This document shows positions 8,637-57,475 of a stretch of DNA of 64,000 nucleotides, piece after piece. Positions within the stretch are counted from its first letter, which is position 1; every line of letters starts with the position of its first letter. Location of the stretch: IMG/VR virus record IMGVR_UViG_3300031555_004297; one strand, written 5' to 3'. The notes under the pieces are model-generated. The model saw only the letters and a program-made list of their open reading frames with translations, did not search any database and was not told the origin of the DNA. The stretch is from a virus. Its lineage: Duplodnaviria; Caudoviricetes. The translations under genes and the position numbers were made by a program.

Positions 8637-8977
8637 TTTTTCATTCTCCTTTGAAATAATGTATTTATAATAACTCTTTCGAGGTTATTTAACGAGTACT
8701 ATCAGCAATTGCCGGCGCTGATAGCATTGTCGGATCCATCGCCTAATGGATCACAGGATTCAAATGAGTCGGAGAATGATAACCCATTCTCCTCCTGCAT
8801 ATTATGAAGAACTATGTTACCTTTCACACAATTGTATATTCAAGGATAGGAGATCGTATGAAAACAAACAAATCATGTGCACACCTTTCGTTCTTCATAA
8901 TTATATTATATAATTAAAAATAATTATATTCCCATAAATAAAGAGAGTGCTATTTCTAGCACTCTCTTTAAATCATT

Positions 8978-11900
8978 TTAGAATCTAATAATATTTGTAG
9001 AATTATTATAAGGATTTCCTCTAAATAATCCTACAGATTCTATTGGGAATCCAGAGACATTGTCTTTAATGATTTCCGAATATTCAATAAACGGAAGAAT
9101 CCATCCAGGCAGTGGCTCATTTAAAGGAATTGCAATAGAGTTGATTCCTGTAGAGTATTCTCTAGTCTTCATCAGTTCAATTGCTCTTTCATAAACTCCT
9201 GGGAATGTTTCTCTTATTCTATCTATATTTTTCATATTCATATCAACCTTTACGACGTCAACAGAATTTCTTATAGACAGATCAAGGGCTTCGGTTCCAG
9301 GCTCATGAAGAGCATTATAAGCATGAGAAGCTGTAATACCTTGAATCCTCATAGGATTCTCATAAGATGAAAGAGATTTGACCTTAACAGGCTTGAAAAA
9401 TTCTTTCTTACCAGCATTAATAGAGTCAAAGATCTCCTTCTCAACTTTTGCAATATCTCTCAATATCTGAATTTGATCTATAGTTTCAGTATTAAGAATA
9501 TCATCGTACAGAATAGTTTTAAGACGTTTCTGCACAGCCACGTTAGTACTTGATTTTACAAATGCATCCATACCCTTAATATCAAGAGACTTCTCTTCAG
9601 GAACTCTATTTCCCTCCTGAAGTTCCATCTTAGATGCATAGTGTTTCTTTGCATCTGTAATCAATACACGGCGAAATAGGAATTCATTCTTGAGTGAAAT
9701 TAGACATGCTCTTTCATTTGTAGAATGAGCATTATCACAATACCTCTCCATATAATCATTCACAAGAATTCCTATACAATAAGCTAAGATATTTATAATA
9801 GAATATCTTAATCCATCTTGAGGAATAATGACCATTGGATCTATAAGACGATCTACTTCAATGATATCATCATTAACAAAACTATATTCATCAACTTTCT
9901 GAATGGGTTCAGAAATTTCCATATTGCCATCAGCAAATTCAGCAGCATTTACTACTTCATTCTTAATAGCCATGGGAATACCTACGCACATTTCTCTTAC
10001 ATAGCGATACCATCCATCAAAAGATACAATGGCACTATCCGTGTCTTGTATAATACTTACAGATCTGATCATAGATGTCATCTTTTCAATTTTGTCAATG
10101 ATTTGGAATCCATAATATACATATTCTTTCAAGACATCGCAGAATTCCTTAAGAGCCTCAAGAATTTCTTCCGGAGGTTCATTAGGATCAAGGAAAGGTG
10201 CTTTAAGAGTTTGAAGAAGATAAAGTATTGCTTGCTTAATAGGAGCATTATCAATAAAATGGAACAAGTTATTCTTATAGAAGAGTCTATCAAGATTATC
10301 TTGATCCAGCTTACAAAGAACTTCCCACACAATATGCATTTCATCTTCTGAAGGAGTCCATCCGAATCCTGTTGAGCTCATAAGTTTAAAGAAGCATTCT
10401 TCAATAGAAGCATGGTTAGTTATAATATTATAGCTATTATAATGACGCTTCTCAAGATGAATTACATTATGAATAAACTCCATAAGCTCATTAAGGGATC
10501 CAAATGGAACATTGTTGTTTAAGAAACTTTCAAAGAATAATGCTGCTGTACTATTACAAGATTTGCCTTGTCGAGTAACACTCGATGCTGTATAAAGATT
10601 GTAATATATGCAAGAGTGCTGTCCCGTCGCACCATAGTCGATGTGTTCATATGGGTCGCTAATCCATACAGTTCTTTTATGAACTTCTCTATATCTCTAT
10701 AGAGTCCAGACTATATCTTCACCAGTTAAGGTGTCCAGTACAGGATCTCGCGGTTTTGAGACCTCTTAGTCGTTGAACCAATTTTAATTAGATATTAGAA
10801 TTTGTATTTACAAGAGATATCAATAAAACTTTTTCTATTACGGATTAATCTAATTAATTCGTAATTTTGTTTGTCATCTCTTGCTGATTTAAGAGTTTTA
10901 CCAAAGACTTTTTCATATACAGCTTTATTATCTAATCCTAATTCTATATATTTGCAAATATCTTCGATAACTTCCTTTGAGTTTGACCTAAATCTTTGAT
11001 CATATTCTGGAAAGGTATAATCTTTCGATATATGCCCCCATGCAATACCTCTATAAATATTACCAATCATGTCCATATTATTGTCTGTAATCGGGATATT
11101 CATTGTAGATAGTATCTCTTTGTATCTCATTCCTTTTGAAAGCATTTCGCATATTTGACGAACTTCGTCATTTGTAAACTTTGCTAAATGACTATTTTCT
11201 CCAATATGATTTAATGCTAATCCGGTTTGAAAAGCGTGTTGAGAGTTCTCTTTTGGGGTACTCCACTCAAGATTAATATCATGATTATATTTCTTATTTC
11301 CATTTTTATGATTAACCTGAATTTGATCGTTTTCTTTTTCAGCAACAAAATTTTCAGCTACAAGCCTATGAACTAAAAGAGATCCACTTTTAATTGAATC
11401 ATTGTGTCTTAAAGTTACAGACTCATATCCTGCTGACTGATTACTATGTCTGACATATTTATTCATTTTCAGATCATAGATATTTCCAAAATTGCTTATA
11501 AGATATTCACCAGGATTGATTCCATGATAAATCAAAGGTTTCCATACTTCATTATCGTCTTTATTATAATAAATTAACGGGTCATGTAGAATCATATTTT
11601 ATATGCCTCCTTTCTATTATTATAATATCTAATTAAAATTTCGGCTGCTGATTGCCCATTGCATATTAATCCTTAGAGTTTCCTCATAGATCATCTCATA
11701 ACTTGTTTCTGACTTTCGTCTCCATATAGGCTTATGAGCTTTAGGGTGTCCCAGCAATTCTCTGGATATTTGTCTTCCACCTTTTCAGATAGAATGGGCA
11801 ATCATATTTACCCATTGGCATCGATTTTCAACAGAAGTTGCAAAAGATTATACTTCTCAAAATCTTCAGACCCTTTCGGATACTTAAACATTTCTTTTTT

Positions 11901-12269
11901 CATCTGCTTACGAGCAGTAATAAATCCATCTATCAAGTGATAGACCGGATTTGGCATTGTTCCATGGCGATTAAATAATACACCATAGGACGTTATGATT
12001 GGTTCTTTAGATATGATATAATCTGCCAAAGATCTTACTGTCATATCTACTTTCTTTTTCTTATAATTATTATCGATTACTACATCTGCATCTTGAAAAT
12101 GCCTAGATATAGAATCGTCAATAGCCGCTGCCAGTTCACCATCCGATAAAAGAGGGAAATTCATCTTCATCATAGGGAGCATGATTTCCTTATACTTTGT
12201 TATAGTAGGACTGACTGGATAATTGGCTAAAGGTGTTCGTAAATTGTCATAGTTCAAAATTGCTTTCAT
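8978..12269 (-). CDS. polB: Family B DNA polymerase, fingers/palm/thumb subunit; spliced join(12269..11810,10638..8978), about 706 aa
   Basis: Splicing restores motif B KIDANGYYG; motif C QDTDS, KKHY and IKGMD motifs lie in exon 2; exon 2 is open from 10638. Confidence 0.88.
10639..11809 (-). mobile_element. Group I intron in DNA polymerase motif B
   Basis: Exon ends in U (AATGGGT) and pairs with IGS GCCCATT; P AATTGCTGGGA, Q AATCAGCAG, R GTTCAACGACTA, S AAGATATAGTC; terminal G at 10639; removal restores the frame. Confidence 0.92.
10795..11595 (-). CDS. Intron-encoded NUMOD4/HNH homing endonuclease
   Basis: EVWKP..YLISNFGNI N-terminus; VHRLVA...VNHKNGNKKYNHDINLEW HNH motif; two C-terminal HTH-like repeats. 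Confidence 0.9.
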   Translation of the reverse strand: MILHDPLIYYNKDDNEVWKPLIYHGINPGEYLISNFGNIYDLKMNKYVRHSNQSAGYESVTLRHNDSIKSGSLLVHRLVAENFVAEKENDQIQVNHKNGNKKYNHDINLEWSTPKENSQHAFQTGLALNHIGENSHLAKFTNDEVRQICEMLSKGMRYKEILSTMNIPITDNNMDMIGNIYRGIAWGHISKDYTFPEYDQRFRSNSKEVIEDICKYIELGLDNKAVYEKVFGKTLKSARDDKQNYELIRLIRNRKSFIDISCKYKF

Positions 12270-12550
12270 TTACGCTTCTCCTTTTTGATATTAATTACGT
12301 GTCCGAATATTCTTATTTCTTTACCACCATCTCTATTAAATACATAAGCGGCTCGTTCTTTACGATATTTCTTACTATATTTGCAGAGAATTTCATCTAC
12401 AATAATAGCATTTGCTTGAGTGCCATGTACTGGGTCGACAATATAATAGTCTTCTCCTAAGAGGTAATCACATAACCCGTTGATAGCTTCTTGCGAAGAT
12501 ATTTCCTTATCTTCAAAAAGCTGCTGTATTAAGGGTCTTGCTGTTTTCAC
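12266..12550 (-). CDS. Hypothetical protein (about 94 aa)
   Basis: GTG at 12550 with AAGGAGG RBS just after the upstream stop; stop overlaps the polB start. Confidence 0.65.
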   Translation of the reverse strand: MKTARPLIQQLFEDKEISSQEAINGLCDYLLGEDYYIVDPVHGTQANAIIVDEILCKYSKKYRKERAAYVFNRDGGKEIRIFGHVINIKKEKRK

Positions 12551-12551
12551 A

Positions 12552-13178
12552 TTAATCGTCCTCCTTAAGGTTAATAATGATAATAATCGCATTTCTACCT
12601 TCTGGATGAGCTTTCTCATCCAATGTAAAGATAGTAATACTGCGATCAAAATTTTCATATTCGAATACGGACTCTACCGTCTCGGTATCATAGCCTAATT
12701 GCATAATTGAAGTATCACTTCTGAGATACAAACGATTATGCTCTGAATAATCTATTATACCAGCATCTGAATTGATAATAAAGGCATTATGATGCTGCGC
12801 TAAGAAACTAGTTCTATGTGCAATATCAATAACCATTGCGAAGAATGCCCGTTTAAAATCCCCATCAGATGGATTATTCATATCCTGAATATTTGCCATT
12901 ATCTCTTTAATTAGCATCTCCATTGCTACCATCTTAAATGGAGCTCTAGGCAGATTAAGAATCTCCATGTCTGGATTCAAGGACATGGAGGATAAAGCTG
13001 TAGTTGTTTCTTCATCGTACATTCTCGTTAATACCGTACAATATTGATTTGGTTTGTACTTTTTAGAAAAATCATCATTTAATGCCATATATGGATTTCC
13101 TTTATACCATATAGCATTTAAACGATTAGGAGTTTTTGCTGTCTCCGATATTTTGTGTGCTTGATATTCAGTGTTCAT
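12552..13178 (-). CDS. Hypothetical protein
   Basis: ATG at 13178 after GGAGGT RBS; late-type promoter 13195-13206. Confidence 0.75.
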   Translation of the reverse strand: MNTEYQAHKISETAKTPNRLNAIWYKGNPYMALNDDFSKKYKPNQYCTVLTRMYDEETTTALSSMSLNPDMEILNLPRAPFKMVAMEMLIKEIMANIQDMNNPSDGDFKRAFFAMVIDIAHRTSFLAQHHNAFIINSDAGIIDYSEHNRLYLRSDTSIMQLGYDTETVESVFEYENFDRSITIFTLDEKAHPEGRNAIIIIINLKEDD

Positions 13179-13299
13179 AAACCACACCTCCATTTATATT
13201 ACTGTTTTCAAGCCGATCAAAGTTCATATTATGATCATATTTATATTATCTAACCGAGCAACATTTATGTAATCTAAATTTTTAAGGAGGCTGTTACAA

Positions 13300-13731
13300 A
13301 TGTTTTATGGCAATGTTTCCAGCGGCGTATTTGGTGGGGCAGATGTTAAGCTCGAGAGTGTGCTCAAGAACCCCAACCAATTCCGTGAAGCTGTAATTTG
13401 TGAAACCATTAGATCCCTTCCCTCTGAGAAGATCAAAGAGTTCTGCACTTCTGAAGAGGCAAAGGCAATGATTAATGAAGGATATATTACTCAGGATACT
13501 ATCGAAAGACTTGCTGATAGCTGCGATACAAGCATCTTCAAGACTACTGTTTGTCACATGGCAAAAGAGGCAGATGATCCCGACTGGGATGCATTCGTAA
13601 TGCATCAGATTGAGTCTCGTAGACTTATGAATGATATGATTGCGAAGTATGGCGATAAGGCTAAAGATATCGCCGATAATGCTCAGACCGACTTTGTTGA
13701 GCATTGTGTTCCCGAATACTTCCGCAAGTAA
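13300..13731 (+). CDS. Hypothetical protein (late promoter; possibly virion)
   Basis: 143 aa, AAGGAGG RBS, AACA-TTTATG-TA at 13260-13271. Confidence 0.8.
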   Translation: MFYGNVSSGVFGGADVKLESVLKNPNQFREAVICETIRSLPSEKIKEFCTSEEAKAMINEGYITQDTIERLADSCDTSIFKTTVCHMAKEADDPDWDAFVMHQIESRRLMNDMIAKYGDKAKDIADNAQTDFVEHCVPEYFRK

Positions 13732-13750
13732 TATTAACTAACTATATTGT

Positions 13751-13845
13751 AATCGGTGAATGGGTCGTGCAAGATTCTTTTCATGGATATTCCTTTCTTA
13801 AAAATATAGCAAGAGGGCAATAGTCCTCTTGCTCTATTTTTTATT
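13751..13845 (+). ncRNA. Candidate small RNA with anti-AUG/anti-SD segment
   Basis: AACT-ATATTG-TA promoter 13740-13751, CATGGATATTCCTTTCT at 13782-13798, terminator 13806-13845. Confidence 0.45.
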
Positions 13846-13851
13846 TTAGGC

Positions 13852-13868
13852 ATATATTATAATTGTGA
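13852..13868 (+). promoter_or_regulatory. Early-type promoter upstream of RNAP beta-prime C gene
   Basis: ATATATTATAATTGTGA. Confidence 0.65.
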
Positions 13869-13952
13869 TTAGATGAAGAAATTTAGATAATTACCTTATC
13901 TAAAACACTTCATTAATAAAGGAAAAACTTTTATCAAATCACAAAAAGGAGA

Positions 13953-16199
13953 ATGAAAATGGAAGGTTACTATAATGCTTTGTGTCGACTTAATACAGAC
14001 GAGTATGCGGTCGATGCTCTTAATCATCCAGAGAATTATGGTGTATATGCGGCAGTAATATCTGGTACACCGATTCGTATTAACACAAAAGATATTACGG
14101 TAGAAACTTGGCAGAGTCATTATGATTCTGTCCTTAATCTTCTGAAAGATGGTATTGAAACAGAGACTGTGCAAAAATGTTTCATTACTATTACATTTGC
14201 AGATGGTATTGTTGTAGAACTCGCTATCACTGACTATCTCATCAATTTGATGATGTGGAATATGCTGATTCGTACAAATCATCAAATCGAATCGAAGCAT
14301 ATCTTTTTCGACACCGAGATTAAGAAAGATACGATTAAAGATTATATTGATATATTCCTTATCGATGTAAGTCGTAAACAGTTCACAAATAAAGAGCTTA
14401 ATAATATTATTGATGATACATTGTATAGAATTCATGATATTGATGGGTTTGCAATGTATTTGTCAAATACAGTTAATCTCGAAGACAATGTATTTCTTAT
14501 GCAGAAATGTCCCGAGTTTAATGAGTGCATGCATGCAGATTTATCAAGTGTACCGATTGAAGATGTAAAATCCGTCGGTATGAATTATGCAAATCGTGCT
14601 ATTGATATTATGAAAGATGCTAAAAAGTATCTCGGATATGATCACTGTCTTGCAGATGCCTGTAGAGCTTCTGAAGGTATCAATCCTAAGCAGTTTAAAG
14701 AGTTTACAATCAATATTGGAACCAAACCAGATGGCCATGGCGGAATCTTCCCCATTCCGATTCTAAACTCTTTCATCAATGGTGGTGTAGCAGATCCGCA
14801 GGATTATTTTATCGAATCTTCTACGGGTCGTACAGCACAGATTATCAAATATAATAACGTAGGCTCTTCTGGACATTTTGCGCGTCTTCTCGGATTGAAT
14901 AATATGGACTCATTCCTGCATCCTGATCCGAATTATGATTGCTGTACACCAAATTATGTTCAAGTTGTAATCAAAGATAAGAATCATCTTAAGATGCTTC
15001 GTAATAGATATTATCGTTTGCATCCAAGAGGGGTTGAAAAGATTATTGGTCCTAAAGATAGTGATCTTATTGGGCAGCTTATCTATCTCAGATCTCCTAT
15101 CACTTGTGCTTCTGCTGCAAGAGGACAGGGTATCTGTTATAAGTGCTATGGAGATCTTGCGTATACCGTATACGATGCTGGTATCCATTTCGGTGTAAAT
15201 ATCGGACGTATCGCATCAGAAACTTTGTCGTCCAGCTTAACTCAGAAACTTCTTTCTGCAAAGCATCTTCTTGAAGCATTTGTAGAAAAAATTGTATGGG
15301 TTAAAGAATTTAATGAACTCTTTGAGATTGAAGGCAATATCATCAAGCTTAATAGTGAGGTAAGAGTTAATGACTATAAGTTTATTATCGATCCAGAAGC
15401 TATCGAGCTTGAAAATGAAGAAGATGATGACCTTGGTAACTTCGATGATGAAGAAGGTGGAGGAGGATTTGCAATTTATAATGAGTATGTCACCGAATTT
15501 GATGTACTTTGCAATGGAGAGCTGATCCATATCTCCAATGATAAGAACGCCAAGCTCTATATCTCTACTGAGTTTAATACTATTATTCGTAAGAAAGGAG
15601 AACCGATCGATGATAAGATCTCTATCGATTTTAGTGAATTGACTGAGATTCCATTGTTTATCGTTCCTATCGAGAATAATGAGCTTTCTAAAACACTTAA
15701 TCACCTTGAACACTTGTTGAATAAGAATAGTACCATTAAGGGTATGGATATTCATCAGCTGCTTCAAGCTTTGTTAGCTACGGCTATTGAAGGTGGATTG
15801 AAGCTCGCTTCTACACACCTTGAAGTAATCGTATCTAATCAGATTAGAGATGCTGAAGATATTCTGAAGAAACCGAAATGGTTCCAACTTAATCCTGATT
15901 ATGAGATCCTGTCTCTTAATAGAGCTCTAACTTGTAATCCTAGCGTTACCATTTCGATGAGTTACCAGAAAGTAAGTAAGCTTCTTTATAATCCGCTTAC
16001 TTTCAAGAAGAATGGAACTTCGTTTATGGATCTATTCTTTATGGAAAGACCGCAGTATGCTATTAATGGAATCGATCTCGATCATGAGGAAGAGTTTGTT
16101 CCTAAGCCCGGAGAACTCTTTGAACCTATTGTTTATTTCGAAGATCCCAATAAAGTTACTGCAGCTGTATCTGCAGATGATATGGATACAGATGAATAA
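13953..16199 (+). CDS. Phage RNA polymerase beta-prime subunit, C-terminal half (probably non-virion RNAP)
   Basis: Bridge-helix-like GRTAQIIKYNNVGSSGHFARLL; RSPITC...ICYKCYG Zn site; trigger-loop-like NIGRIASETLSSSLTQKLLSAKH; HLEVIVSNQ. Confidence 0.88.
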   Translation: MKMEGYYNALCRLNTDEYAVDALNHPENYGVYAAVISGTPIRINTKDITVETWQSHYDSVLNLLKDGIETETVQKCFITITFADGIVVELAITDYLINLMMWNMLIRTNHQIESKHIFFDTEIKKDTIKDYIDIFLIDVSRKQFTNKELNNIIDDTLYRIHDIDGFAMYLSNTVNLEDNVFLMQKCPEFNECMHADLSSVPIEDVKSVGMNYANRAIDIMKDAKKYLGYDHCLADACRASEGINPKQFKEFTINIGTKPDGHGGIFPIPILNSFINGGVADPQDYFIESSTGRTAQIIKYNNVGSSGHFARLLGLNNMDSFLHPDPNYDCCTPNYVQVVIKDKNHLKMLRNRYYRLHPRGVEKIIGPKDSDLIGQLIYLRSPITCASAARGQGICYKCYGDLAYTVYDAGIHFGVNIGRIASETLSSSLTQKLLSAKHLLEAFVEKIVWVKEFNELFEIEGNIIKLNSEVRVNDYKFIIDPEAIELENEEDDDLGNFDDEEGGGGFAIYNEYVTEFDVLCNGELIHISNDKNAKLYISTEFNTIIRKKGEPIDDKISIDFSELTEIPLFIVPIENNELSKTLNHLEHLLNKNSTIKGMDIHQLLQALLATAIEGGLKLASTHLEVIVSNQIRDAEDILKKPKWFQLNPDYEILSLNRALTCNPSVTISMSYQKVSKLLYNPLTFKKNGTSFMDLFFMERPQYAINGIDLDHEEEFVPKPGELFEPIVYFEDPNKVTAAVSADDMDTDE

Positions 16200-16292
16200 T
16201 TATATGGAGAGTGGTAATCAAATACCACTCTCCTTCGAATATTTTCCATATTTATTTTTTATGTAACTTTAACGTAATTATAGAAAAGGAGA

Positions 16293-17129: not shown

Positions 17130-17149
17130 TTTTAAGGAGAAATAAAACA

Positions 17150-19451: not shown

Positions 19452-19547
19452 TTAATTGAGTCCCTTCCCCAACAATGGGAAGGGACTCAATATTTTTCCT
19501 TTTGTAACAATTAATTAAAGAAATTAGAAGGAGGACTAATTGCAGTT

Positions 19548-20702: not shown

Positions 20703-20892
20703 TTAATATGGAATTAATAGTGGAATCTTTTTCTAGATTCCACTATTAAATTTTATATATTGTATCCTCAATATTCTCAGAGGAACAAATTCTAAAATCG
20801 AACAATTTAAATAAAGGTTTAATTCTTGGACTTTTCAGTCCGCATTCGGTTATGCCTTAAAAATCTTTTAAAAGAGGAGGGTATACTCTATC

Positions 20893-22863: not shown

Positions 22864-22881
22864 GAAAGGAGGTAGAATGTA

Positions 22882-26908: not shown

Positions 26909-26935
26909 TTACATAGGAAAGGAGGTGTGTGATCT

Positions 26936-33900: not shown

Positions 33901-36900
33901 ATTTCCTCCATTTCTCCCAAGCTTCAAGATCGGGCTGTATATAAACATCTCTAATAGCGCAAGGATCATTATTAACATCGAAAATCATAGGCTCATAAAG
34001 TAACTTAGGATTTTCAAATACCATAGGCTCAAAGAGGCCTTCTCTATTATAGAATCTAAGCCCATTATAGGCATTCATCTTCGTCATAAAGAATTCCTCA
34101 ATCTCATGATATAGAGTCTGATAGTCTGCAAGATGCAACCAACGAGAATTGATCTCGAGCCATACTTGAGATATCATATCTTCAGTAAATGCTCCAGCTC
34201 TTGTCCAACGGTCATCGAGCTTGCATCTATTTTCTTTATCATGAACTTTATTAGGAATATCAATCATACCAATTTGAGTATGAGGTGCTATATTAAACTG
34301 TCTTATTACAGAAGGATACAAACTTGCATACATATTTCTTCATATAAGGTCGTTACTCTTATACCGCCTCCTATCTAGAGACTGCTGTATATTACTATAC
34401 AGATGAGACTATATCTTTACCTTATTCAGGTACTCCCCATTTCCACTCACTTGAGTGTACTCCCTTTCGGGATAGTCGTTGAACCTTAAAATTTATAGTT
34501 TTTGGAAATTCTTGTATAATGCGTTTTCGTATATACTTTTCTTAATGTATCAATGCAACTTTTTGGATTTTCGAATCCACAGTCTTTTGCTGCAATTTCA
34601 ACATAAGTTTTAATTCCCATATTTTCTGGCTTTGGGTTTGCTTGAAAGTATTTACATAGTGTGACTATTTGCTCATCAGAATATTTTCTTCCTTCTCGAT
34701 GCTCAAAACTGCAATCTAAAGTAAGATGCTTCCAACTTTCCTTTTTCTTTATAGAATTTACTATGTTTTCACTAATTCCGAGAATTTGTGCAATTTCTTT
34801 ACACATATATCTTCCAGACTTAAGCATTTCAACAACTTCTTTAGCTTGTTCTTCAGAAATTGTTGTAATAGGAATATGCAGTCTTGTTCTATATGCATGC
34901 AATATATTCTCAGATCTAGTAGCCCATTCAAGATTCCATTCTGTATTTTCAAATTTATTGCCATTAAGATGATTTGCCTGATATAAATAATCATTCTCGA
35001 TTGGCTTAAATACCTTTAAGACTAATCTATTAAGTTGTACTATTTTTGGTCCATTACAAGTTGATAGTACTATAAATAGATATCCACTAGTCTCTAGTCC
35101 GGGCTTCATAATAATTTCTAAATATCTATGATATACACGTCCATAATTTGATATCATATAGTATGGATATACTCCAGGAACGTGATCATTTGTTATATAT
35201 TCAAACTTTTCACCAGGTTGTAATATTGATGGATTTATTACATCCATTGCAATTTGAAGTTTATATTTCATAATTTGCCCTCTTTCTATAAATTTTCTTG
35301 GCTGCTGATTGTCCAAGATTCATAATTATATTATATAATTATGCCGTAAATTAATGAATTTACATCTTGGAGTTTCCAGCAATTAAAGGAGTTTTCACTA
35401 ACAAATTTCTCTGCTAGGCGACTATATTTAGTTTATCGAAGTCATCCAAGTTATCAAATACGTCAATCAATCTTCCATAAATTTTCAGTTTACTATAACC
35501 ATTAAGTTTCAACGGGTCGGCAACAAAGGCCCCGGGAAACTTTTCTGTAGGTTTCTCGTTAAACTTATTTACATTATTACCCATTATAAATCCATCCTTC
35601 TCAAACTCCTTAACCCCTCGATTGGTTAGGTATACAGTCTGACGATGGGTCTTTGAATAACGAGTGTTATTAATATTACATTTGCTAAAGACATAGTTTA
35701 TATCTTGTGTCATAGCCTCAATGCAATACTGAACAATTGTATCCATGATATTATAGAATACAAAAGTCTTATAGTCTTTATAAGGAAGCTCGGCGATATT
35801 AGTTGTAATATGCTTATAATCGAGCTTTCTAACTTTCGCAATAGCTTCACCTATGAAATCCAGAGTAAAGGAATGGAACTTAGTCTGTCCTTTACGTCTA
35901 GATGCAAAGTGTATCATCTGATCCAAAAATACCGAATATGAAGAAATCAATGCAAAGTCGCCACGTTCAGCAAATTCACTTTTCATTCTTTCATCTACGA
36001 AATATTCTGCAACTTTATTTTTGAAATCTTGATGACATACGATATCACAAGGATCATATCCAAGTCTTTGAATACGTGATAATACATAGGGAACGTCGAA
36101 TCCCATATTCCATGCCAATACGAAATCTGGCTGAAATGTATTGATAGCATTGAATAGATCTTTAATCAGATTAATTTCATCATCTTCATCATAAAAAAGA
36201 AAGTTGTAATTGAAATTAATATTATACTTCGCCGCCATCTCGGGTCCACCGACGGCTTGAATTACAAATGCTTGTAATTCTGGAAAGATGGATCCATTAT
36301 TTACCTGCTCCTCAAATTCTGCAATAAGAGGATTTGCTTTATTCCTTAAAAGGAATACATAAACTTGTTGTTGATCTTGTAAGATTAAAGATACTGCATT
36401 AATAGGACACTCTCCTGGTTGTGGGAAGTCGCCCATCATATTAATAGAATCAACCTCGATATCGAAGAAGGATTTAGATATCGAACAAGGCTCATTCTGA
36501 TACATTTTTCCGAATCTAAATCTATAGTGATCTTCAATATTCATATCACTATTAAAGATATCCGGATGCGTATGAAGTTTTCTATTTGCAGTTCTGTTTC
36601 CATTCTTGATATTTTCAAAGAAGAAATCGAGATTTCCTGTACGCTTTGCTATATCTTTCTCAAGCTCATTATAAGGTACCGTAACTGTCTCAACATCTTC
36701 TTTATCAATAAATAATCTCGGATAAGTAGTCCTCTTATCCGACTTAGCAACATAATACTCATACTCAGGATTTATGATCTCTTCTACATGTTTTATTCCA
36801 GTATCACAATCCTTATAAACTAGTGTCAGATATTCTTTATACTTATTATCTTTTGGATCGGTTCTTCTAAAGAACATGGTATTCATGATCGTTATATTGG

Positions 36901-37014: not shown

Positions 37015-37122
37015 AGTAAAAGATCAGAGAGACGGCGCATCGACCGTCTCTCTTTTCCCTCTGGCGAGATAGAAAAATAAAGGAAAAACATTCACCAATT
37101 TCCCATTCATGGATCATGCTTT
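37015..37122 (-). ncRNA. Candidate small RNA
   Basis: AACA-TAAATT-TA promoter 37122-37133, TTTCCTTT tract, terminator stem 37026-37052, no ORF. Confidence 0.35.
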
Positions 37123-38178: not shown

Positions 38179-38179
38179 A

Positions 38180-38585
38180 AAATCAAGATCCAGAGGTTTT
38201 ATCCTCTGGATCTCTTTTTGTTGGCTTAGGGTGACGCCTCATAATTAGAATAAAGCCAATTCTAATTACTGCGACTGCGTCCTTTCGATCAAAATTTGGT
38301 AAAGGAAGTAAATCATCCCTCTGGATAGACAAAAGATCATTTGAACTGATCGACAGATAAACATATGATTCAATACATCTAATGTCAAGGTAGCGGAGCC
38401 ATGGCTCAGTAAAAGTATTGCTATTATTTTTGGAGGGCCGACTTATCGCTTAGAAGCGCGGCGATTATCTTTCGCGATAAATCAAAATGACCATAAAGCA
38501 AAGTGACGCGGGATCGGGCCCGCAAATTCGAGAGAATTCAAATTAATGAACTTATAAAAACGGAAGATCGCTTCCGCTACCTTTT
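38180..38585 (-). ncRNA. Candidate structured ncRNA (about 400 nt)
   Basis: AACT-TTTATG-TA promoter 38585-38596, 11-bp long-range stem 38387-38397/38573-38583, many hairpins, terminator. Confidence 0.5.
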
Positions 38586-38614
38586 ACATAAAAGTTATTT
38601 AAGTAAAAATTTAC

Positions 38615-38950
38615 CAAAAAAAAGAAAGGCACCCTCTGCCTTTCTCCAAAACTCTCACAGGAGTTTTGTCATTGTTTCATGTCGCCATGAAATTGTCTGG
38701 TTATTTTTTTTCATCCATCATAACCGGGTGCACAAAGTGCAATATGATGGAGCTCTTCATATTCGTATCGGGATTTCGATACTACGGGCTTAGCCCAACC
38801 AGTAAACCCGGCTCCCAGGAGCCTTGGCGTGCCTTTTCTACTAGAGACTTCAGCACATTAAGAAGAGTTAATACGCATGCTAATAAATTAAGGAGATAAA
38901 CATGCGTAAGGCAATATTAAAAGAATGAATTGTTACATTCATTCATTATT
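38615..38950 (-). ncRNA. Candidate structured ncRNA (about 330 nt)
   Basis: Early-type promoter 38943-38959, chain of GC-rich hairpins, AGAAAGGCA/TGCCTTTCT terminator with U tract. Confidence 0.5.
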
Positions 38951-39021
38951 ATGATATATACTTAAAAAATATTTTACTAGCGATATGAGAGATAGCTATT
39001 ATAGCTATCTCTCATATCATA

Positions 39022-42172: not shown

Positions 42173-42189
42173 ATAACCACCGCCTTTCT

Positions 42190-43208: not shown

Positions 43209-43210
43209 AA

Positions 43211-45206: not shown

Positions 45207-45209
45207 AGC

Positions 45210-45848: not shown

Positions 45849-45924
45849 AATTTCATCCTCCTTATAAATACTAAAAATAAACCGGATGGCGTAAACCATC
45901 CGGTTTACACCCGGAGTGATTTAG

Positions 45925-46536: not shown

Positions 46537-46650
46537 GGTAAAATTTATCCTCCATTTTTCTTTATAATAAAAGCCTCCCAATGAGCTTGAGAGGCTTTGT
46601 ATTACTTTTATAATATGTGATTAATAGAAAGTTTAACTCGTTGTAAACTT

Positions 46651-48945: not shown

Positions 48946-49047
48946 AAAATATTCTCCTTTCTTTTTATCAAAGGAATAATATATAATCTAAAAATAAATT
49001 GTCGTAGAAAGTGGCATAGAGGCATGACACCTCTATGCCATTTACGG

Positions 49048-51291
49048 TTACTTATTATTAGATGCTGCTTCCTCTTTAGCCTTTTTTGCAGCTTCGAGGG
49101 CTTCGCCTTCAAGGAATTCCATAGGATAGATTTCCATAGGCCATTTATAATCCCTTGTTCTAAGAAGTCTTTGATACTCGGCTTCCATATCGATCTTTTC
49201 ATCTTTATGATGGAAGACCATAGGTTCTACGAGTCTTCTAGGATCATCCCAGAAATACATAGGATCGATAAGCATAGCATGCTCTTTCTTCTTGGCAATC
49301 TTATCAAATGTAAGTTTCAATCCCATAGTTTTCAAATAAACATTAAGGATTTCTACATTACGATTCTTAGATTCCATATCAAGCTTAACGTCGACATTGA
49401 ATGCATCGCCAGTAAGCATTGATTCAGTAAGACGTCTTGCGTTAGGAGATGTCGAATAGAGCATCAACATCTGTACAACAAGTTTGGCACCCAGATGAAT
49501 AAGATTTCCGGTTTCCATGTCTCCAAAGCGTATTGGTGTTCTAGAGAACAAGGCACGATAGTTATTACTGGATTTGCTCTTACTATTTTCATTTCTGATA
49601 TTGGTAGCAGACAAAGATGTTACTGAAAACTTCTCTTCTGCATACTGTTTCAGACGATAGATATATTGATATCCGTAAATCATAGGTCTTCTGGAGGGTA
49701 CGTATTTGATTTCTCCAGCAGAATCCTTGATTGGCATCATCATTCTCTCAGGCTTGGCCCAGGGGAATGCTTCATAAAGTTGAGCTAGTTTATCAATCGT
49801 CATGTTCTCGCTCATCGGTTCGATAACGAGATACATGCATTTTTCCTCAGCATAGACATTTGAGATATATGCAATACACTCATCATCTGTCATTCTACTG
49901 AACTGCTCTTCTGTAAAATGTACCATTGAAGGAGCCACGATCTGTAACAACTCAAGATACATTTCAACACATTGACCTACATCGAGCACATTCAGATTTA
50001 TAAATCTGAGCATTTGCATACAGATATAGGTTAAAGAGATTTCAAACAGCTGACCTGCGTTTTCTCTACCATATACGCCACACATGTTTAAGATAACATC
50101 GATTACCTTTCCATCTATGGTTCTCGGCATTTCGCTATCAGGTTTAACTCTTGCAGTAATACCTTTACCGCCATATCTATTGGAGAGTTTATCTCCACGA
50201 AGCACAGGAATCTCTTCTATAAGAGTAATCTCAAGCTCAATATTCGAGAATACACGTTCAGAAAAATACTGCTTACCGCTAAGAATACCTCTGCAATCAG
50301 ATACAAGCTTTGAAAGATCATAATCGAATCTGCATCCAGCATCTACATAAGGCTGAAGAAGATCAATTACTTCATTTGCAAGTCTAATCTTTTCTTCATA
50401 ATATCTCTTAATCTGAGTATTATGAACATACTCCTCTAGTTTTTCAGGAGCATTAGAATATACATCGATATCGACTACTCGACCAGCGACTGTATATCTT
50501 TCATCAGAAATTGAAAGCTCTCTAAGTCTAGCATAAGACTGAGAGAACAAGCATTCTTCCTTCTTCTCTCTACGGAATCCACAAAGAATGCTATTAATTG
50601 TTTCTTCACCAATATCTGGGAAGATCTTATAGACCTCCGAATTACCGTAAAGATTAAGGGGAATATCGTTATCATTAACGACGATTCTTACTTTCTTCAC
50701 AAGTGGAGATGCAAGCTTCTTAGAAGCCGATTCAGAAATAACGATAGCATCCTCCATTGTTTCTTCACATGAAGAATACATTGTCAGAAGGTTTTTGCCA
50801 TCCATACGATTATCATACTCATCAAATGACATACTCTTTTGAATCACTGTACCTTTGGGAATGAAGGTACCAGGACTCATATAGTCAATAGCATCATTAT
50901 TGAGAAGATAGCCATAATTTTCTGTAATGTGTTTATATTCTTTTCTCTCGAAAAGACGGATCTCACCAGTTTCTCTATTTAAAGCAAACATGTAATAGTG
51001 ATGCTTAGGACAGAAAGAAAACTTGGGTATGCATCCGATTACCTCGAGATCATATTCAACCGCAATATATGAAGATGAATTTCGTCCAAATTCATTCTCA
51101 TAGCCAGTCATAATATATGGAACATCGGGAGATATGAGAGATAGTTTCTGCTCAAGCTGGCTTCCGTACATGAGTTTACGAGAACCCGAGTTTGATGGAG
51201 AAAACGGCATCATTGCTCCTTTTCCAAGAATTAAGTCTGGCTTCTCTGTTTGGATACTTTGAATTTCGTTTCGCAAATTAACTGAAGCCAT
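49048..51291 (-). CDS. Phage RNA polymerase beta subunit, C-terminal half (probably non-virion RNAP)
   Basis: GSRKLMYGSQLEQ, GKNL...MEDAIVISES, GDKLSNRYGGKG, GRENAGQ, YIYRLKQ, RFGDME; early promoter 51345-51361. Confidence 0.92.
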   Translation of the reverse strand: MASVNLRNEIQSIQTEKPDLILGKGAMMPFSPSNSGSRKLMYGSQLEQKLSLISPDVPYIMTGYENEFGRNSSSYIAVEYDLEVIGCIPKFSFCPKHHYYMFALNRETGEIRLFERKEYKHITENYGYLLNNDAIDYMSPGTFIPKGTVIQKSMSFDEYDNRMDGKNLLTMYSSCEETMEDAIVISESASKKLASPLVKKVRIVVNDNDIPLNLYGNSEVYKIFPDIGEETINSILCGFRREKKEECLFSQSYARLRELSISDERYTVAGRVVDIDVYSNAPEKLEEYVHNTQIKRYYEEKIRLANEVIDLLQPYVDAGCRFDYDLSKLVSDCRGILSGKQYFSERVFSNIELEITLIEEIPVLRGDKLSNRYGGKGITARVKPDSEMPRTIDGKVIDVILNMCGVYGRENAGQLFEISLTYICMQMLRFINLNVLDVGQCVEMYLELLQIVAPSMVHFTEEQFSRMTDDECIAYISNVYAEEKCMYLVIEPMSENMTIDKLAQLYEAFPWAKPERMMMPIKDSAGEIKYVPSRRPMIYGYQYIYRLKQYAEEKFSVTSLSATNIRNENSKSKSSNNYRALFSRTPIRFGDMETGNLIHLGAKLVVQMLMLYSTSPNARRLTESMLTGDAFNVDVKLDMESKNRNVEILNVYLKTMGLKLTFDKIAKKKEHAMLIDPMYFWDDPRRLVEPMVFHHKDEKIDMEAEYQRLLRTRDYKWPMEIYPMEFLEGEALEAAKKAKEEAASNNK

Positions 51292-51378
51292 AGTTTTATT
51301 CTCCTTTATTTCTCTTTAAAAGATCTGATGAGAGTAGACCCTCATCAGATCTATAATATATTTACAAACAGCTATTTA

Positions 51379-52629
51379 TTACATTGCTGCTGCAAGTTCT
51401 GCATTGATAGCAGAATTAATATCATCTACGATAGAATAATTAAACTCATCAAGAGTTTGTTCTACATCGTATCTATCAAGCTCATCCTTAAGCATTGCCA
51501 TTACTTCCTGGATAAATGCTTGACGAAGTTCAGGAATCTCTCTAAGCTTTTCTTTGAAAGCCTTCTGAGAGAACTTGTATTCTGATTTATCTCCAATATA
51601 TAAGTAAGCTCCAGCACCATTAATTCTCTTGGCATTCTTAAGCATTACAAACAAGGAGAGTTCAGGATCAAATCCTCTGGTTTGATCAAATACCAAAGTA
51701 CAGCTCTTTCCGGCTCTATTAGTTCTAGATTTAACAAGAGTCAAATCTACCATATTTCCGGAAATACCAAACGCTTCATCTTCTTTCATCTTTGAATTAT
51801 CATCGAATCTAAGAAGAAGGTTTGTAAGATAAATTGCAGTATTACCACCAGGAAGCGTCTCATCCTGTTTGAGATAACTTACCTGCGACTTAGTTCTCTG
51901 CATAGGATTAATATCGATCTTCTTATTGATATGATTAATCATAATAAGAATGATATTAGCACTCTTAAGCATAGGGATAACGCGCTTAAATGTGCTAGAG
52001 TTTGTCTTTGATGCTGCAGTTGCACTCATCGACCCGGAAAGTTCCTCCTCCTCAGTATACTTTTCAGGCATAAGAAGTGCAAGAGAGTCAAGAATATAAA
52101 CTGTAGGCTCTAGTTTATAAATTCTCTCGCCACGAGAATCGAAATATCCAGTATCATATTCATAATCTTCTCTATTCTCAAGTTTAAGATCATGAATCAT
52201 CTTAATACGCTCATAGAAGTTTTCAGCAGTAATACCAGTATTTCTAGAGATATATTTCTGCTCAAGAAGTTCTCCATGGAATCCAGAAAGAAGTTCTTTA
52301 CGATTGGCATCGATACCTCCTTCGATATCATCATGGAAAATACATCCATTAGCAAAAGGTCTTACAATGTTTGCAGCTACCTGAACTGCAAATGTGGTTT
52401 TACCACATCCAGATCTACCGATAAAACATACGAGAGAACCATCTTGAATACCAGTAGAATAATAATTGAACTTTCGTTCATTAGATCTTACATGAACAAC
52501 CGTTCCATTCATGAAGTCAAAGTTCAGAAATCCAGTAGAATAGCTTGCACCAGCCCCAGATTCTGCTTTCATGCGATAATCTTTGTGTTTAGACACTGCC
52601 TGTCTAAACGTTGTAGCAAGAGTACCCAT
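51379..52629 (-). CDS. recA: RecA/UvsX recombinase
   Basis: YSTGFLNFD, GRSGCGKTT, ILDSLALL, IMINH, LPGGN, LVKSR. Confidence 0.85.
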   Translation of the reverse strand: MGTLATTFRQAVSKHKDYRMKAESGAGASYSTGFLNFDFMNGTVVHVRSNERKFNYYSTGIQDGSLVCFIGRSGCGKTTFAVQVAANIVRPFANGCIFHDDIEGGIDANRKELLSGFHGELLEQKYISRNTGITAENFYERIKMIHDLKLENREDYEYDTGYFDSRGERIYKLEPTVYILDSLALLMPEKYTEEEELSGSMSATAASKTNSSTFKRVIPMLKSANIILIMINHINKKIDINPMQRTKSQVSYLKQDETLPGGNTAIYLTNLLLRFDDNSKMKEDEAFGISGNMVDLTLVKSRTNRAGKSCTLVFDQTRGFDPELSLFVMLKNAKRINGAGAYLYIGDKSEYKFSQKAFKEKLREIPELRQAFIQEVMAMLKDELDRYDVEQTLDEFNYSIVDDINSAINAELAAAM

Positions 52630-52741
52630 ATTAATTTATCCTCCTTTTAAAGTTACTCATAACTATTGTGTTATTAAAAAGTTATGGGCTATATAAATAT
52701 ATAAAAAATAAGAGCGTACCGAAGTACGCTCTTAAAAGATT

Positions 52742-53620
52742 TTACGGAATCTGTTTTCCGTCGGACGAAGACAAGTAGTCAACGACCCTCGTGATTTTAG
52801 AATAATCTCCGCTTAATGCATGAAGACTAAATCTTACCTGAGGATATCCTGCAAACTCCCATTCTGCAGCATAACCAATCAATACTTTTCTGATATTCTC
52901 AGAAGTCATGTTGTTGAGAATTACCAGAACGGCAAGTCCTACAGTTCCATATACTTCTACAAAATTATCACCAAAATCAATCTGCTGACGAAGAGTATAA
53001 CAGTCAAACATTGTTGCATAAAACAGATCAGAAATTCTATCGAATAGCTTTTCATAAATCCATACAATTGTCTGCTCTGTCATGACATCTGGATCTCTCA
53101 TATAAATAGCAAAATTAAGACGAGCTACATTCGTTCTTTCATTTGCTGAAGAATATCTACAGAGAGCCAAATTGCATGCGGTATTTTCATCAAGACCAAT
53201 CGAGATAAGTCTATTGATTGCCTCTCTATTAACAACTCTGCTCATATTCAAGTATTGAAGCTTGATATTAGGATCAGGGTTATCAGAAGTAAAGTAATCA
53301 TAAGTGATCTTGTTACATGCTAGCTTGGTATTATAGTCAATCGGAATAGAATTGATTGCTCTAATAAAGCTAGAAATAAATTTTTGGTCTCTAAAAAGAG
53401 GGCCATAATCTTGATCATTTTGAAGTATATCCATAGCGATGACATCTATATTATTCTTGATCAGAATTGCAAGATTGTGTTCATCCATCTGCGGAATACT
53501 AGGAATCGATTGTTTAAAAATATTTCGATTAAGCTGATCGAAACTAGCTGATACTAATTTAGGTGTAACAGGCTGCATATTCTGCACCTGATTATAAAAT
53601 CCTTCAAGTGGATAAGGCAT
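52742..53620 (-). CDS. Hypothetical protein
   Basis: 292 aa, AAAGGAGG RBS. Confidence 0.8.
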   Translation of the reverse strand: MPYPLEGFYNQVQNMQPVTPKLVSASFDQLNRNIFKQSIPSIPQMDEHNLAILIKNNIDVIAMDILQNDQDYGPLFRDQKFISSFIRAINSIPIDYNTKLACNKITYDYFTSDNPDPNIKLQYLNMSRVVNREAINRLISIGLDENTACNLALCRYSSANERTNVARLNFAIYMRDPDVMTEQTIVWIYEKLFDRISDLFYATMFDCYTLRQQIDFGDNFVEVYGTVGLAVLVILNNMTSENIRKVLIGYAAEWEFAGYPQVRFSLHALSGDYSKITRVVDYLSSSDGKQIP

Positions 53621-53806
53621 ATATTTTACCTCCTTTATAATATAAAGATTTATGTAATTTCTATATTATAATATGTAGTCAAATTATTTTTAAGAAAAAA
53701 TAAATTTATCTTTTGGGTTAGATAGGAAGGAGCTTGACTCTCCTTCCTATCTATGAGGATAAATTTAAATGATTTTGATAAGTTGGCAAGCTTATATTCA
53801 CATCAT

Positions 53807-54343
53807 TTATCTGTAAGTTGGTTGTGCATTATCTTTTAAATATTCTTTTCTATCATTTTCGATAGCTCTTATGAATGCATTGACTCGATCAGTGGCTCCA
53901 AAGAATCCCATCCAATGGTGTTCAAAATCCCACCAGAAATTATTATGGATTCTTCTCCATCTAAGATCTTCAATATCTCTTCCTCCATCTGTAAAATGAC
54001 ACCAGAGATAACAAGGTTCTTTTAAACCTCTATCATTTCCTTTTCTGGAATATGCTGCGATAGAATTTTGAATAGTTTCGAAATCGTCTTCATGACAGAA
54101 GATATAGAAAGGTGTATCTGCCATATTTTTAAGATAAGATTCGCGGAGAGCGTATTTATTATAGTTCTCCATAATATATTCAAAGCTTCTTCTTGAAGCT
54201 CCGAATTCGTATTCTGCTGATCCCATGTAATTGAAATACACGAACTTGTTATTCCCATATCCGAGGACAATTTCTTCAGATTTGATATCTTTTTCGATCT
54301 GACCTGTTTGAATTAGGTAAAATTGCATTACTTGATTACACAT
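53807..54343 (-). CDS. Hypothetical protein
   Basis: 178 aa; FNYMGSAEYEFGA motif. Confidence 0.75.
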   Translation of the reverse strand: MCNQVMQFYLIQTGQIEKDIKSEEIVLGYGNNKFVYFNYMGSAEYEFGASRRSFEYIMENYNKYALRESYLKNMADTPFYIFCHEDDFETIQNSIAAYSRKGNDRGLKEPCYLWCHFTDGGRDIEDLRWRRIHNNFWWDFEHHWMGFFGATDRVNAFIRAIENDRKEYLKDNAQPTYR

Positions 54344-54437
54344 TAGAATTGTTCCTTTCTTTTAACTACGATGGCCTGCATGCGTAATACTATTTGCAGC
54401 ATCTTTAGCATTGTTAACTCCTATATTTAAATATGTA

Positions 54438-55325
54438 TTAGTTGTTGGGTACGATATATACGTTGATATTGGTATTTGTGATTGCATAGCAAGAGTTGTG
54501 TGTAGGGCATGCTATATCAATTGTGCTAGTTCCAAGATAACCCCTATCTTCAACTACATAAAAGCCATAGCCTTCGATATAGAGGGTGGTTCCAAAAGGA
54601 ATATTCTCAGGGGCTGCTACACTATACCCACAAATCATGCTTACGCCTGCTGCACCAGTTCCATCTGTGTTCTCGCAACAGTGCTCACAAGAAGGGGTAT
54701 AACCTGTGATCTTATAAGATCCAAGTTTTGTGAAATTAGAGGTGTCTACTTTACCAGTATAATTCTTCATAATCTCATCGAGTTCAGGAACAGTAATATC
54801 TACTGCTGGATTAGAACGCTGGCCGTATCTATAAGAGGTCTTGGGGCCTGCTTTGATAGTTTTTCCAGCCATCTTTTTATTCCATGCTTCAATGTTTTCT
54901 GTATTCTCATTCTGGATAGTATCCATAAGAGCTACAAAAGAAGGATCATTTGCATCAGGAATTCTAAGAGTTTTACCGATATGAAGAATATCGGTTGTCT
55001 CCATATTATTAAATCTTGCAAGAGCTTTATAATACAAACCTGTATCATAAAATTTAACGCTGATAGACCAATAGTTATCGCCAGACTGAACAGTGTAAGA
55101 CTTGGTTTCGTATGTAATTTCAGGCTGCTTAATGGTTGTGGGTGCTTCTGTTGCGATTATGGTAGAATTGTTATCGTTAGCATCATCGATATCAGCTTTT
55201 TGGCATCCAGATACAATAAGAGTGATAACAAGAACGATTGCAGCAATAGCTACAAGAACAAGTTCTCCAAAGATAACTTTGATAAGGGTTTCCTGTGTTT
55301 TTGTAAAGTTGTTGTGTGTACTCAT
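54438..55325 (-). CDS. Membrane-anchored LysM plus 3D-domain cell wall protein
   Basis: Hydrophobic N-terminus ending VSGC; YTVQSGDNYWSIS LysM; KITGY..VAAPENIPFGT..VEDRG..IDI 3D domain. Confidence 0.88.
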   Translation of the reverse strand: MSTHNNFTKTQETLIKVIFGELVLVAIAAIVLVITLIVSGCQKADIDDANDNNSTIIATEAPTTIKQPEITYETKSYTVQSGDNYWSISVKFYDTGLYYKALARFNNMETTDILHIGKTLRIPDANDPSFVALMDTIQNENTENIEAWNKKMAGKTIKAGPKTSYRYGQRSNPAVDITVPELDEIMKNYTGKVDTSNFTKLGSYKITGYTPSCEHCCENTDGTGAAGVSMICGYSVAAPENIPFGTTLYIEGYGFYVVEDRGYLGTSTIDIACPTHNSCYAITNTNINVYIVPNN

Positions 55326-55459
55326 TTTGGTTTCTCCTTAATTTTAGAAATAATAATTTTAATGGTAGTTTCGAATTTAAACTCGTATTAATTTAGGGGG
55401 TTGCTTGATACGTAATAAAAATATACCGACAGGGTCTTCTCTCCCTGTCGGTATATTAA

Positions 55460-55621
55460 TTACTTAGATTGCTTAGTCTTCTGAGGATCCTCAGGCTTAT
55501 TCGGTGTCTGCGTGGGTTGGGGCTGCTGATTGAGCTCATTTTCTTTTACGGGCTGGAAGCCGAGACCGTTACCTACTACAAATCCCTGCTCCTGGATTAC
55601 TCCATAATTCTTGTTGCTCAT
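55460..55621 (-). CDS. Small hypothetical protein (53 aa)
   Basis: AAGGAGG RBS, late promoter 55648-55659, terminator 55421-55456. Confidence 0.7.
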   Translation of the reverse strand: MSNKNYGVIQEQGFVVGNGLGFQPVKENELNQQPQPTQTPNKPEDPQKTKQSK

Positions 55622-55711
55622 ATAGATAAATTCCTCCTTTCTATATTTAAATAAATGTTGATTTTTTGACCATTTACTATATGAATCATGATTATAATAT
55701 ATGGTCAAAGA

Positions 55712-55815
55712 AAGGAAGAATAACGGGGAACATCCCCGTTATTCTATGTGTCATTGAAAAGCGTTTAAAAATATATGTACGGCAGGAGGTGTACAAACAA
55801 TTCCGAAAAGCTTTT
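55712..55815 (-). ncRNA. Candidate small RNA or 3' UTR RNA with anti-SD loop
   Basis: Hairpin TGTAC-ACCTCCTGCC-GTACA at 55776-55795; AACC-N6-TA upstream; terminator 55717-55746. Confidence 0.4.
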
Positions 55816-55824
55816 ATTATATGG

Positions 55825-56553
55825 TTATTCCGTTTCTCTTACTATCTTAGCTTGTTTGCCAGCAATAGTCTTAGGAAGCATATAATCATGATTCAAAATA
55901 TTTGTATTAAGAAGAGAAGAGATCATATAAGTATTTAAAGTATTCTTTGCAATAGAATCAACCTCATCAATTGGAATATCGTCTTTAGATACTTTACCCA
56001 TTGTAGAAATAGTCTGATATGCAATAGATTTTGCATTCATATAGTCTGCTCTCCAAGTCGAAAGCTCATCCATGGTCTTATCAAGACCCATGACGGCCAA
56101 CGCTTCCATTTCACGGTCACTAGTCTTTCCACCTTTATCAAAGGATACGAGCAGGCCAGATTTCATATCTCTATGGTCAATACTAGAAGGTGTAGAGTTC
56201 TTCTTTGTAATAAACTGTTTCATCTTCTTAATATGGATATAAATTACCATAGCTTCTTTAGACCAAACAGGATTGCCATTTTTATCTTTATAAAGGTAAG
56301 GAAGTGCTACTTTCTCAAGAAGCGGTACATTAAGCACTTTCAAAGCTTCTTCAATGTCATACATTTTAGGTTCAACAACAAAAGGTTTTGTATGAAATCT
56401 AAAAGGAAGATCCCTTTTACAAAATCTCATAAATTGCTCATCACTCATTTTAGCAAAGAGTGCTTTATAATAAGAAGAATTATATTCGTCTTTATCAAGC
56501 TTATCCATTACTGTATAGATAAGCTCTTCTGCCTTTTTACGTTGTGGTGTCAT
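55825..56553 (-). CDS. Probable virion RNAP subunit corresponding to the C-terminus of beta
   Basis: IHIKKMKQFITKKNS resembles YMLKLxHLVxDKxH; GGKTSDREMEALAVMGLDKTMDELSTWRAD resembles [31 protein letters not shown]. Confidence 0.72.
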   Translation of the reverse strand: MTPQRKKAEELIYTVMDKLDKDEYNSSYYKALFAKMSDEQFMRFCKRDLPFRFHTKPFVVEPKMYDIEEALKVLNVPLLEKVALPYLYKDKNGNPVWSKEAMVIYIHIKKMKQFITKKNSTPSSIDHRDMKSGLLVSFDKGGKTSDREMEALAVMGLDKTMDELSTWRADYMNAKSIAYQTISTMGKVSKDDIPIDEVDSIAKNTLNTYMISSLLNTNILNHDYMLPKTIAGKQAKIVRETE

Positions 56554-56624
56554 ATATGGTTATCCTCCATTTCCTATAAAGGATTTATCTATAATTATAT
56601 TTATGTCCAAAGAAAAATGAAGTA

Positions 56625-56989
56625 AATTAAAAAGAAAGACACGAGTAGGGCCCTACTCGTGTCTCCCTCATCAATGACATAAAACAAGAAAGTGTTTATA
56701 TTAAATCATCAATGAGGATTATATATAAGAAAAGAAACCAATCATAAAATGAATGCGTAAGAGAGGTGATACGCAGCATGATAAAGGATAGCAGTTATAA
56801 AGTAAGAAGTATTAAATTCAGAGGAGATCTCTTAAAATAAATTATACTTTGATAAGGTGAGCCTGTTACATCGGCTAAAATGTAAAGATAATCTTATTTT
56901 GAAAAGATATCTTGAATAAAACCTTTTCTTCGCCGGAAAGGTGTAACTGTTAAATCCCTTAAAGATTGAGGGATGATGTAGTTTCTTTT
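56625..56989 (-). ncRNA. Candidate structured ncRNA (about 360 nt)
   Basis: AACA-ATAATA-TA promoter 56989-57000, end-pairing stem, multiple hairpins, terminator GACACGAGTAGG/CCTACTCGTGTC plus U tract. Confidence 0.5.
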
Positions 56990-57084
56990 ATATTATTGTT
57001 AAGAATAATATTGGAATTTTTATTTTTATAATATTTTACTATTTTATTATAATTATAGAAAAAGAAATCCTCCCGGATTTCTTT

Positions 57085-57222
57085 CCCGTAGTATGGTTTT
57101 CCCGTAGTATGGTTTTCCCGTAGTATGGTTTTTCCGTAGTATGGTTTTTCCGTAGTATGGTTTTTCCGTAGTATGGTTTTTCCGTAGTATGGTTTTTCCG
57201 TAGTATGGTTTTTCCGTAGTAT
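57085..57222. repeat. Tandem array of 16-bp units YCCGTAGTATGGTTTT (8 full plus 1 partial)
   Basis: Directly visible; flanked by very AT-rich DNA. Confidence 0.95.
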
Positions 57223-57326
57223 AATTAATTAATAAGTAGTACTTCGTACCTTTAATTAGTAATTAGGAAATTAAAAAAAATATGAAATATTTTTGTAATA
57301 AAATAAAATCTTACGAACTTTAGAAT

Positions 57327-57475
57327 AAAGCTGGTGGATGAAGGTGGAGAGGTGTGTCACGCTTCGCCTCTTTCTGGCATCTTGTCATATGGAAACTCCT
57401 TTTTTATATTTTTGACATGTACCTTAAAACACAACAAGAACCATAGTAGACAAAAGTCTACTATGGTTTCTTTTT
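57327..57475 (+). ncRNA. Candidate small RNA with anti-AUG/anti-SD segment
   Basis: AACT-TTAGAA-TA promoter 57316-57327; CATATGGAAACTCCTTTT at 57386-57403; terminator 57436-57475. Confidence 0.45.

Follow-up and report, generated by a model that had tools for sequence, protein, structure and literature searches.

A probable family of anti-RBS small RNAs in a phage related to AR9 and in its close kin

Small RNAs (sRNAs) with C-rich seeds are known from Firmicutes, the examples being RsaE and RsaD of Staphylococcus aureus and RoxS of Bacillus subtilis (PMC8334554). Phages P1 and P7 produce the c4 antisense RNA, which is trans-encoded and uses loop-presented sequences to pair around a ribosome-binding site (RBS) (PMC12197685). 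The c4 RNA functions in the immunity of temperate phages, has a known target in the same genome and is a single conserved RNA. RNAs without an open reading frame (ORF) have also been described in giant lytic phages, including 11 sRNAs of 201phi2-1 (PMC11512511), misc_4 of phiR1-37 (PMC12197685) and the orphan late starts of AR9, which are starts without a gene (PMC5312081). The excerpts of these papers available to us describe none of them as a family with anti-RBS seeds.

The 64,000-nucleotide stretch of phage DNA analysed here (the window) contains genes for a terminase, an SbcC-like protein and several subunits of a multisubunit RNA polymerase (RNAP), and also an intron-split DNA polymerase gene with HNH genes. 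It belongs to an uncultured, AR9-like jumbo phage of the gut. The nearest cultured relatives of this phage are AR9/PBS1-like jumbo phages (~27% identity), and near-identical strains are found in gut metagenomes, presumably of ruminants, to judge from their study codes. A strong Shine-Dalgarno (SD) sequence is located upstream of 89% of the genes, which suggests a Firmicute host. A motif search upstream of the phage genes showed enrichment of AAC(A/T)-N6-TA and of an AT-rich early box, which are identical to the mapped late and early promoters of AR9, respectively (PMC5312081). The late motif is short, and chance alone would place one upstream of 12-17% of intergenic positions. Scans of the window with Rfam and ARAGORN gave no matches. 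At 10484-11807 and 34334-35413, two DNA polymerase genes are interrupted by group I intron-like sequences that contain HNH endonuclease genes, vary in presence among strains and have no Rfam hit at gathering score. The close-strain counterpart of 12266-12550 (minus strand), a 94-aa gene, has a precomputed Pfam match to PF25189 (Tad8) and is a possible anti-defence gene. Two 53-aa genes with a strong SD are located at 55460-55621 (minus) and 58999-59160 (plus), the first of which is kept across distant relatives.

A sequence-only reading of the window had singled out seven intergenic sites (S1-S7) that carry the reverse complement of an SD, often together with an anti-AUG, behind a phage promoter, and had interpreted them as trans-acting sRNAs. 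All seven motifs are present, six at exactly the coordinates and strand given there and the third (S3) displaced by 1 nt (Table 1). Six of the seven have a phage promoter motif at a distance of 29-71 nt upstream, always on the anti-SD strand and never on the opposite one; the exception is S6, with the nearest promoter ~220 nt upstream. The units had been described as free of ORFs, which S4 strictly is not, because its transcribed strand has an ORF of 19 codons and a weak SD for it. In the predicted folds, the anti-SD of S1, S2, S3, S5 and S6 is an unpaired C-rich seed (probability of being unpaired 0.70-1.0), which is not the case at S4 and S7, and across relatives the accessibility of the seeds was just marginally over the null (p=0.065). 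For S1, S2 and S3, folding predicts that the anti-SD is unpaired or lies in a loop and that the anti-AUG is in the stem next to it, arranged as in a loop-initiated antisense RNA.

Table 1. Coordinates in the window of the seven sites and of the elements assigned to them.
Feature	Position	Strand	Anti-SD or anti-start motif	Terminator	Basis or remark
S1 late promoter, AAC(A/T)-N6-TA	13740..13751	+			AR9 late consensus; kept in six lineages
S1 predicted sRNA, ~95 nt	13751..13845	+	13782-13798	13809-13832	Fold; anti-SD conservation
S5 predicted late sRNA, ~105 nt	55710..55815	-	55784-55791	55717-55745	Fold; strain and synteny comparison
S7 predicted late sRNA, ~100 nt	37020..37122	-	37079-37086	37026-37053	Conserved block
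S2 predicted late RNA, ~150 nt	57327..57476	+	57386-57403	57440-57467	Fold; strain comparison
S6 candidate late unit, ~360 nt	56628..56989	-	56759-56770	56637-56664	Anti-SD in loop; promoter distant
S3 long structured non-coding RNA, 760 nt	38185..38944	-	38889-38904		Early promoter 38943-38962; covariation
S4 260-nt leader of 72-aa gene (8418-8636)	8637..8896	-	8844-8860		Early promoter 8895-8914

The sites are heterogeneous. S1, S5 and S7 are compact, late, sRNA-like units, S2 and S6 are weaker cases, and S3 and S4, discussed below, differ from both. In our proposal the compact units would work like RsaE/RoxS or like c4 of P1, while belonging to neither family. The RsaE/RoxS covariance model of Rfam has no match in the window, and the units differ from RsaE, RsaD and RoxS in being phage-encoded, in using a phage promoter, in having UCCU/CUCC rather than UCCCC seeds, and in their unconserved bodies. 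With c4 they share the (here predicted) loop presentation of an anti-RBS sequence by a phage RNA; unlike c4, they form several dispersed units, without an own-genome target in the 64 kb. The RNAs of 201phi2-1, phiR1-37 and AR9 are similar in that they belong to the same broad phage group and are short, gene-less, start-to-terminator units. One of the strongest mapped late starts of AR9 (75478, minus strand) gives a short intergenic RNA that begins with an anti-SD; this RNA (75400-75500) is conserved in PBS1, Goe21 and Internexus, and this AR9 example is half of an inverted repeat in the DNA.

The S1 promoter is located 8 nt past the stop codon of a 143-aa gene (13300-13731), with a predicted start at 13751. 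The RNA would consist of a 5' hairpin with the anti-AUG, a fully unpaired anti-SD (predicted probability 1.0) and a terminator hairpin. Promoter, anti-SD and terminator are found in all six lineages with a 50-70-nt insert behind the 143-aa gene, and the anti-AUG, at variable spacing, in five of them; the rest of the body is dissimilar. The insert is missing from five relatives, in which the stop codon is directly followed by the terminator. S5 has a promoter that overlaps the stop codon of an RNAP-subunit gene, and a strong anti-SD in a hairpin loop. The unit is near-invariant among strains with diverged flanks; at the same position two relatives have a unit of unrelated sequence that also contains an anti-SD, and four have none. 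The anti-SD of S7 is weak (-5.7 kcal/mol) and mostly paired, in an 85-nt block that is conserved against diverging flanks. The related genome G001 has a counterpart with a similar U/C tract at equal distance from the promoter.

S2 presents its anti-SD in a hairpin loop with the anti-AUG in the stem, and the motif is retained in close strains. What more distant orthologues have in common with it is chiefly the promoter and a G-rich 5' end; the anti-start is missing in G001 and G002 and present in G003. S2 adjoins an origin-like tract of tandem 16-17-nt repeats in an AT-rich gap (57070-57225), a candidate replication origin where relatives have a different repeat sequence. Beside the repeats, the blind search described below found another unit (57003-57112, plus strand), with a weak promoter and a C-rich, anti-SD-like, mostly paired stretch. 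At S6 the anti-SD core is common to all strains and the anti-AUG occurs in the window only.

The claim that all seven sites are trans-acting sRNAs of one kind is not supported, as two of them behave differently. S3 appears to be a separate case, a long structured RNA with no Rfam match, in which the anti-start is a lineage-specific, dispensable loop. Two lineages have lost this loop, which sits in the second hairpin, and the stem covaries; covariance analysis, which had been suggested as a check, showed that 19 of the 63 pairs in the 5' part have compensatory changes when five strains are compared. Another C-rich motif, near 38432, is retained, and the RNA includes a tRNA-like arm. The best predicted partner of S4 is its own downstream RBS (8640-8653), with which both the motif in Table 1 and a second anti-SD (8771-8778) are able to pair. 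In the predicted folds of the window leader and its G001 orthologue, the only two diverged versions, the SD is paired with a probability of ~0.9. The RBS of the window is hidden via the motif in Table 1, and that of G001 can pair with a 12-nt exact complement, its anti-SD and RBS differing jointly from those of the window. We consider it more likely than not, judging from these models, that S4 alone is a cis-acting translational switch, in which the RBS of the 72-aa gene is either hidden or free, as is also suggested by the absence of a terminator before the gene. However, the pairing elements of the two versions are unlike, and a search for orthologues of the leader found none besides G001 and its twins. 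The early leader, in which different SD/anti-SD pairings are possible and one hairpin is conserved, is laid out like a riboswitch.

We measured the frequency of anti-SD sequences in units collected blind to SD content, by masking genes and 30 nt upstream of their starts and taking the remaining promoter-to-terminator segments. The search covered the window together with G001-G004, near-complete genomes of four relatives that are 64-85% identical in an RNAP subunit; dinucleotide shuffles provided the null expectation, and the relatives' units were limited to ≤150 nt (n=35). The sets depend on how we called genes, promoters and terminators, in genomes that are related to each other. Among the 10 units of the window, nine contain an anti-SD (4.7 expected, p=0.006) and four an anti-SD with CAT (0.8 expected, p=0.009), without enrichment in the sense-strand mirror. 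The relatives have an anti-SD in 19/35 units (10.7 expected) and an anti-SD with spaced CAT in 11/35 (1.6 expected), so that the anti-AUG at RBS-like spacing is enriched ~sevenfold. Controls were flat (sense mirror 1 vs 0.6, reversed 1 vs 1.2), and CCTCC and CTCCT were the top two enriched 5-mers overall. The excess of anti-SD with CAT is significant in three of the four relatives taken singly, and also in units non-syntenic to the window sites (6/26 vs 1.1 expected, p=0.001). Most of the relatives' units were inspected by eye; the frames on their opposite strand are short or continue antisense into a gene next to the unit. The same test was negative in two more distant relatives, G005 and G007, and, after small adjustments to the promoter and terminator rules, in AR9 and MarsHill, all of which provide few units; the trait therefore looks confined to the clade of the window phage and its close relatives. 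At 69699-70083 of G002, the 16S rRNA 3' tail is copied exactly between a tRNA gene and a terminator.

The working strand could be the other one, encoding micro-ORFs of 8-23 aa (in the earlier proposal, targets of cis-antisense RNAs) or ribosome-binding stabilisers near the 5' end of an RNA. On that strand the SD and ATG resemble a good start, often followed by AAA, and genuine promoter-hairpin-SD-ATG leaders exist in this phage. However, the SD strand lacks a promoter in every case tested, and of the orphan SD+ATG motifs, 15 go with a promoter on the anti-SD strand, against four with one on the SD strand (p=0.01). At S1, S2, S3 and S6 there is no conserved small ORF opposite the RNA, as would be expected for cis-antisense or type I toxin-antitoxin-like pairs. 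The peptides are unconserved even among near-identical strains: the S1 micro-ORF shifts frame after codon 2 in strains that are 98-99% identical in the flanking protein, that of S2 has a stop after three codons in one lineage, and those of S3 and S6 have lost the start codon; S5 and S7 have no start codon at all. A resemblance of the S1 micro-ORF to the start of an intron HNH gene was dismissed, as sister strains differ in frame. We consider the other-strand explanation very unlikely, though there is room for a peptide-independent role of the SD strand. Retention of SD and ATG at S1 and S2 despite loss of the peptide fits selection on complementarity. Leftover 5' ends of deleted genes, together with chance promoter matches in AT-rich gaps, are another explanation, which rapid gene turnover in the gaps, the short promoter motif and the lack of signal in distant relatives might favour. 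Such remnants would not be expected to keep an SD amid drift elsewhere, or to couple to the promoter strand; moreover, conservation of S5 and S7 exceeds that of the sequences flanking them, and the second codons implied by the seeds are unlike those of phage genes of any size. We regard this origin as improbable.

The trans-acting interpretation is partly supported, in that the promoter asymmetry points to the anti-SD strand as the RNA strand, and the anti-SD is enriched and is retained during turnover. Phage mRNAs, which had been named as possible targets besides those of the host, are not preferred partners. The best duplex energies of the seeds do not differ between the phage's own genome (-25.2) and those of other phages (-25.5; p=0.78), and own start regions are not preferred in the four near-complete relatives, nor in the 64 kb available for the window phage. 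Pairing of stand-alone units with neighbouring genes was rejected, the neighbours being mid-list by rank. Late shut-off of the phage's own early mRNAs would suit the predicted late timing and a 17-nt exact complement between one relative's unit and a start region of its own genome, but 17-mer complements arise anyway among 7% of that genome's start regions; with the equal energies and the ranks of the neighbours, this makes such targets unlikely. The anti-SD might also mimic the 3' tail of 16S rRNA as a generic decoy for SDs at large, a host protein or a nuclease, without a specific mRNA target. This would explain why several units have only an anti-SD, why some are exact copies of the 16S tail, and why bodies turn over freely. 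The anti-AUG enrichment would be superfluous for a 16S mimic, though, and a generic sponge would also affect the SD-rich mRNAs of the phage, so we think a decoy quite unlikely. Searches for targets gave two exact 22-nt matches in GTDB, in unrelated phyla and at chance level, and only hits with E≥0.3 among plasmid and phage sequences; a 29/33 match of the S2 complement to cro start regions of Streptococcus phages (E=0.3) was not counted. The implied second codon is AAA in 9/23 seeds, compared with 8-14% (~10%) of phage genes and 6% of shuffles. Many Firmicute genes have AAA as their second codon, a hint that the seeds are aimed at host mRNAs. Host mRNAs are also the likeliest targets because the neighbours are not targets and the phage's own genes are not favoured.

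From the motifs, strand coupling, enrichment, conservation pattern and absent coding constraint, which are direct observations, we infer transcription, pairing, repression and host targets. The predicted RNAs are complementary to ribosome-binding sites and would thus probably silence other genes by base pairing; they probably constitute a family of phage anti-RBS sRNAs in the window phage and its close kin. On balance we favour the view that S1, S5 and S7, and less surely S2 and S6, are late sRNAs preventing initiation on mRNAs of genes that are not their neighbours, probably those of the host. The phage's own non-virion RNAP would produce the compact units late in infection from promoter-body-terminator cassettes immediately behind stop codons. 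A C/U-rich anti-SD seed, exposed in a loop or unpaired stretch and often with an anti-AUG in the adjoining stem, would dock on the SD of an mRNA, from where pairing would spread over the start codon and block 30S loading. Quick turnover of the bodies may track different targets or hosts. A more tentative, and to us doubtful, extension is that the units are modular, fast-changing antisense guides, with fixed promoter and terminator and a swappable anti-start body, each directed against a chosen host mRNA (e.g. of defence or receptor genes).

To our knowledge, little has been established about what small RNAs do in strictly lytic phages, and the literature that we searched, with incomplete coverage, does not describe such a set of RBS-masking RNAs in a lytic phage. 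The short units are amenable to reporter assays without phage culture. If the interpretation is correct, dispersed RBS-masking RNAs that combine a fixed layout with variable seeds would provide AR9-like phages with host take-over or counter-defence at the RNA level, and the seeds would indicate which host genes the phage needs silenced. Should the units be modular guides, a lytic phage would silence host genes by RNA alone.
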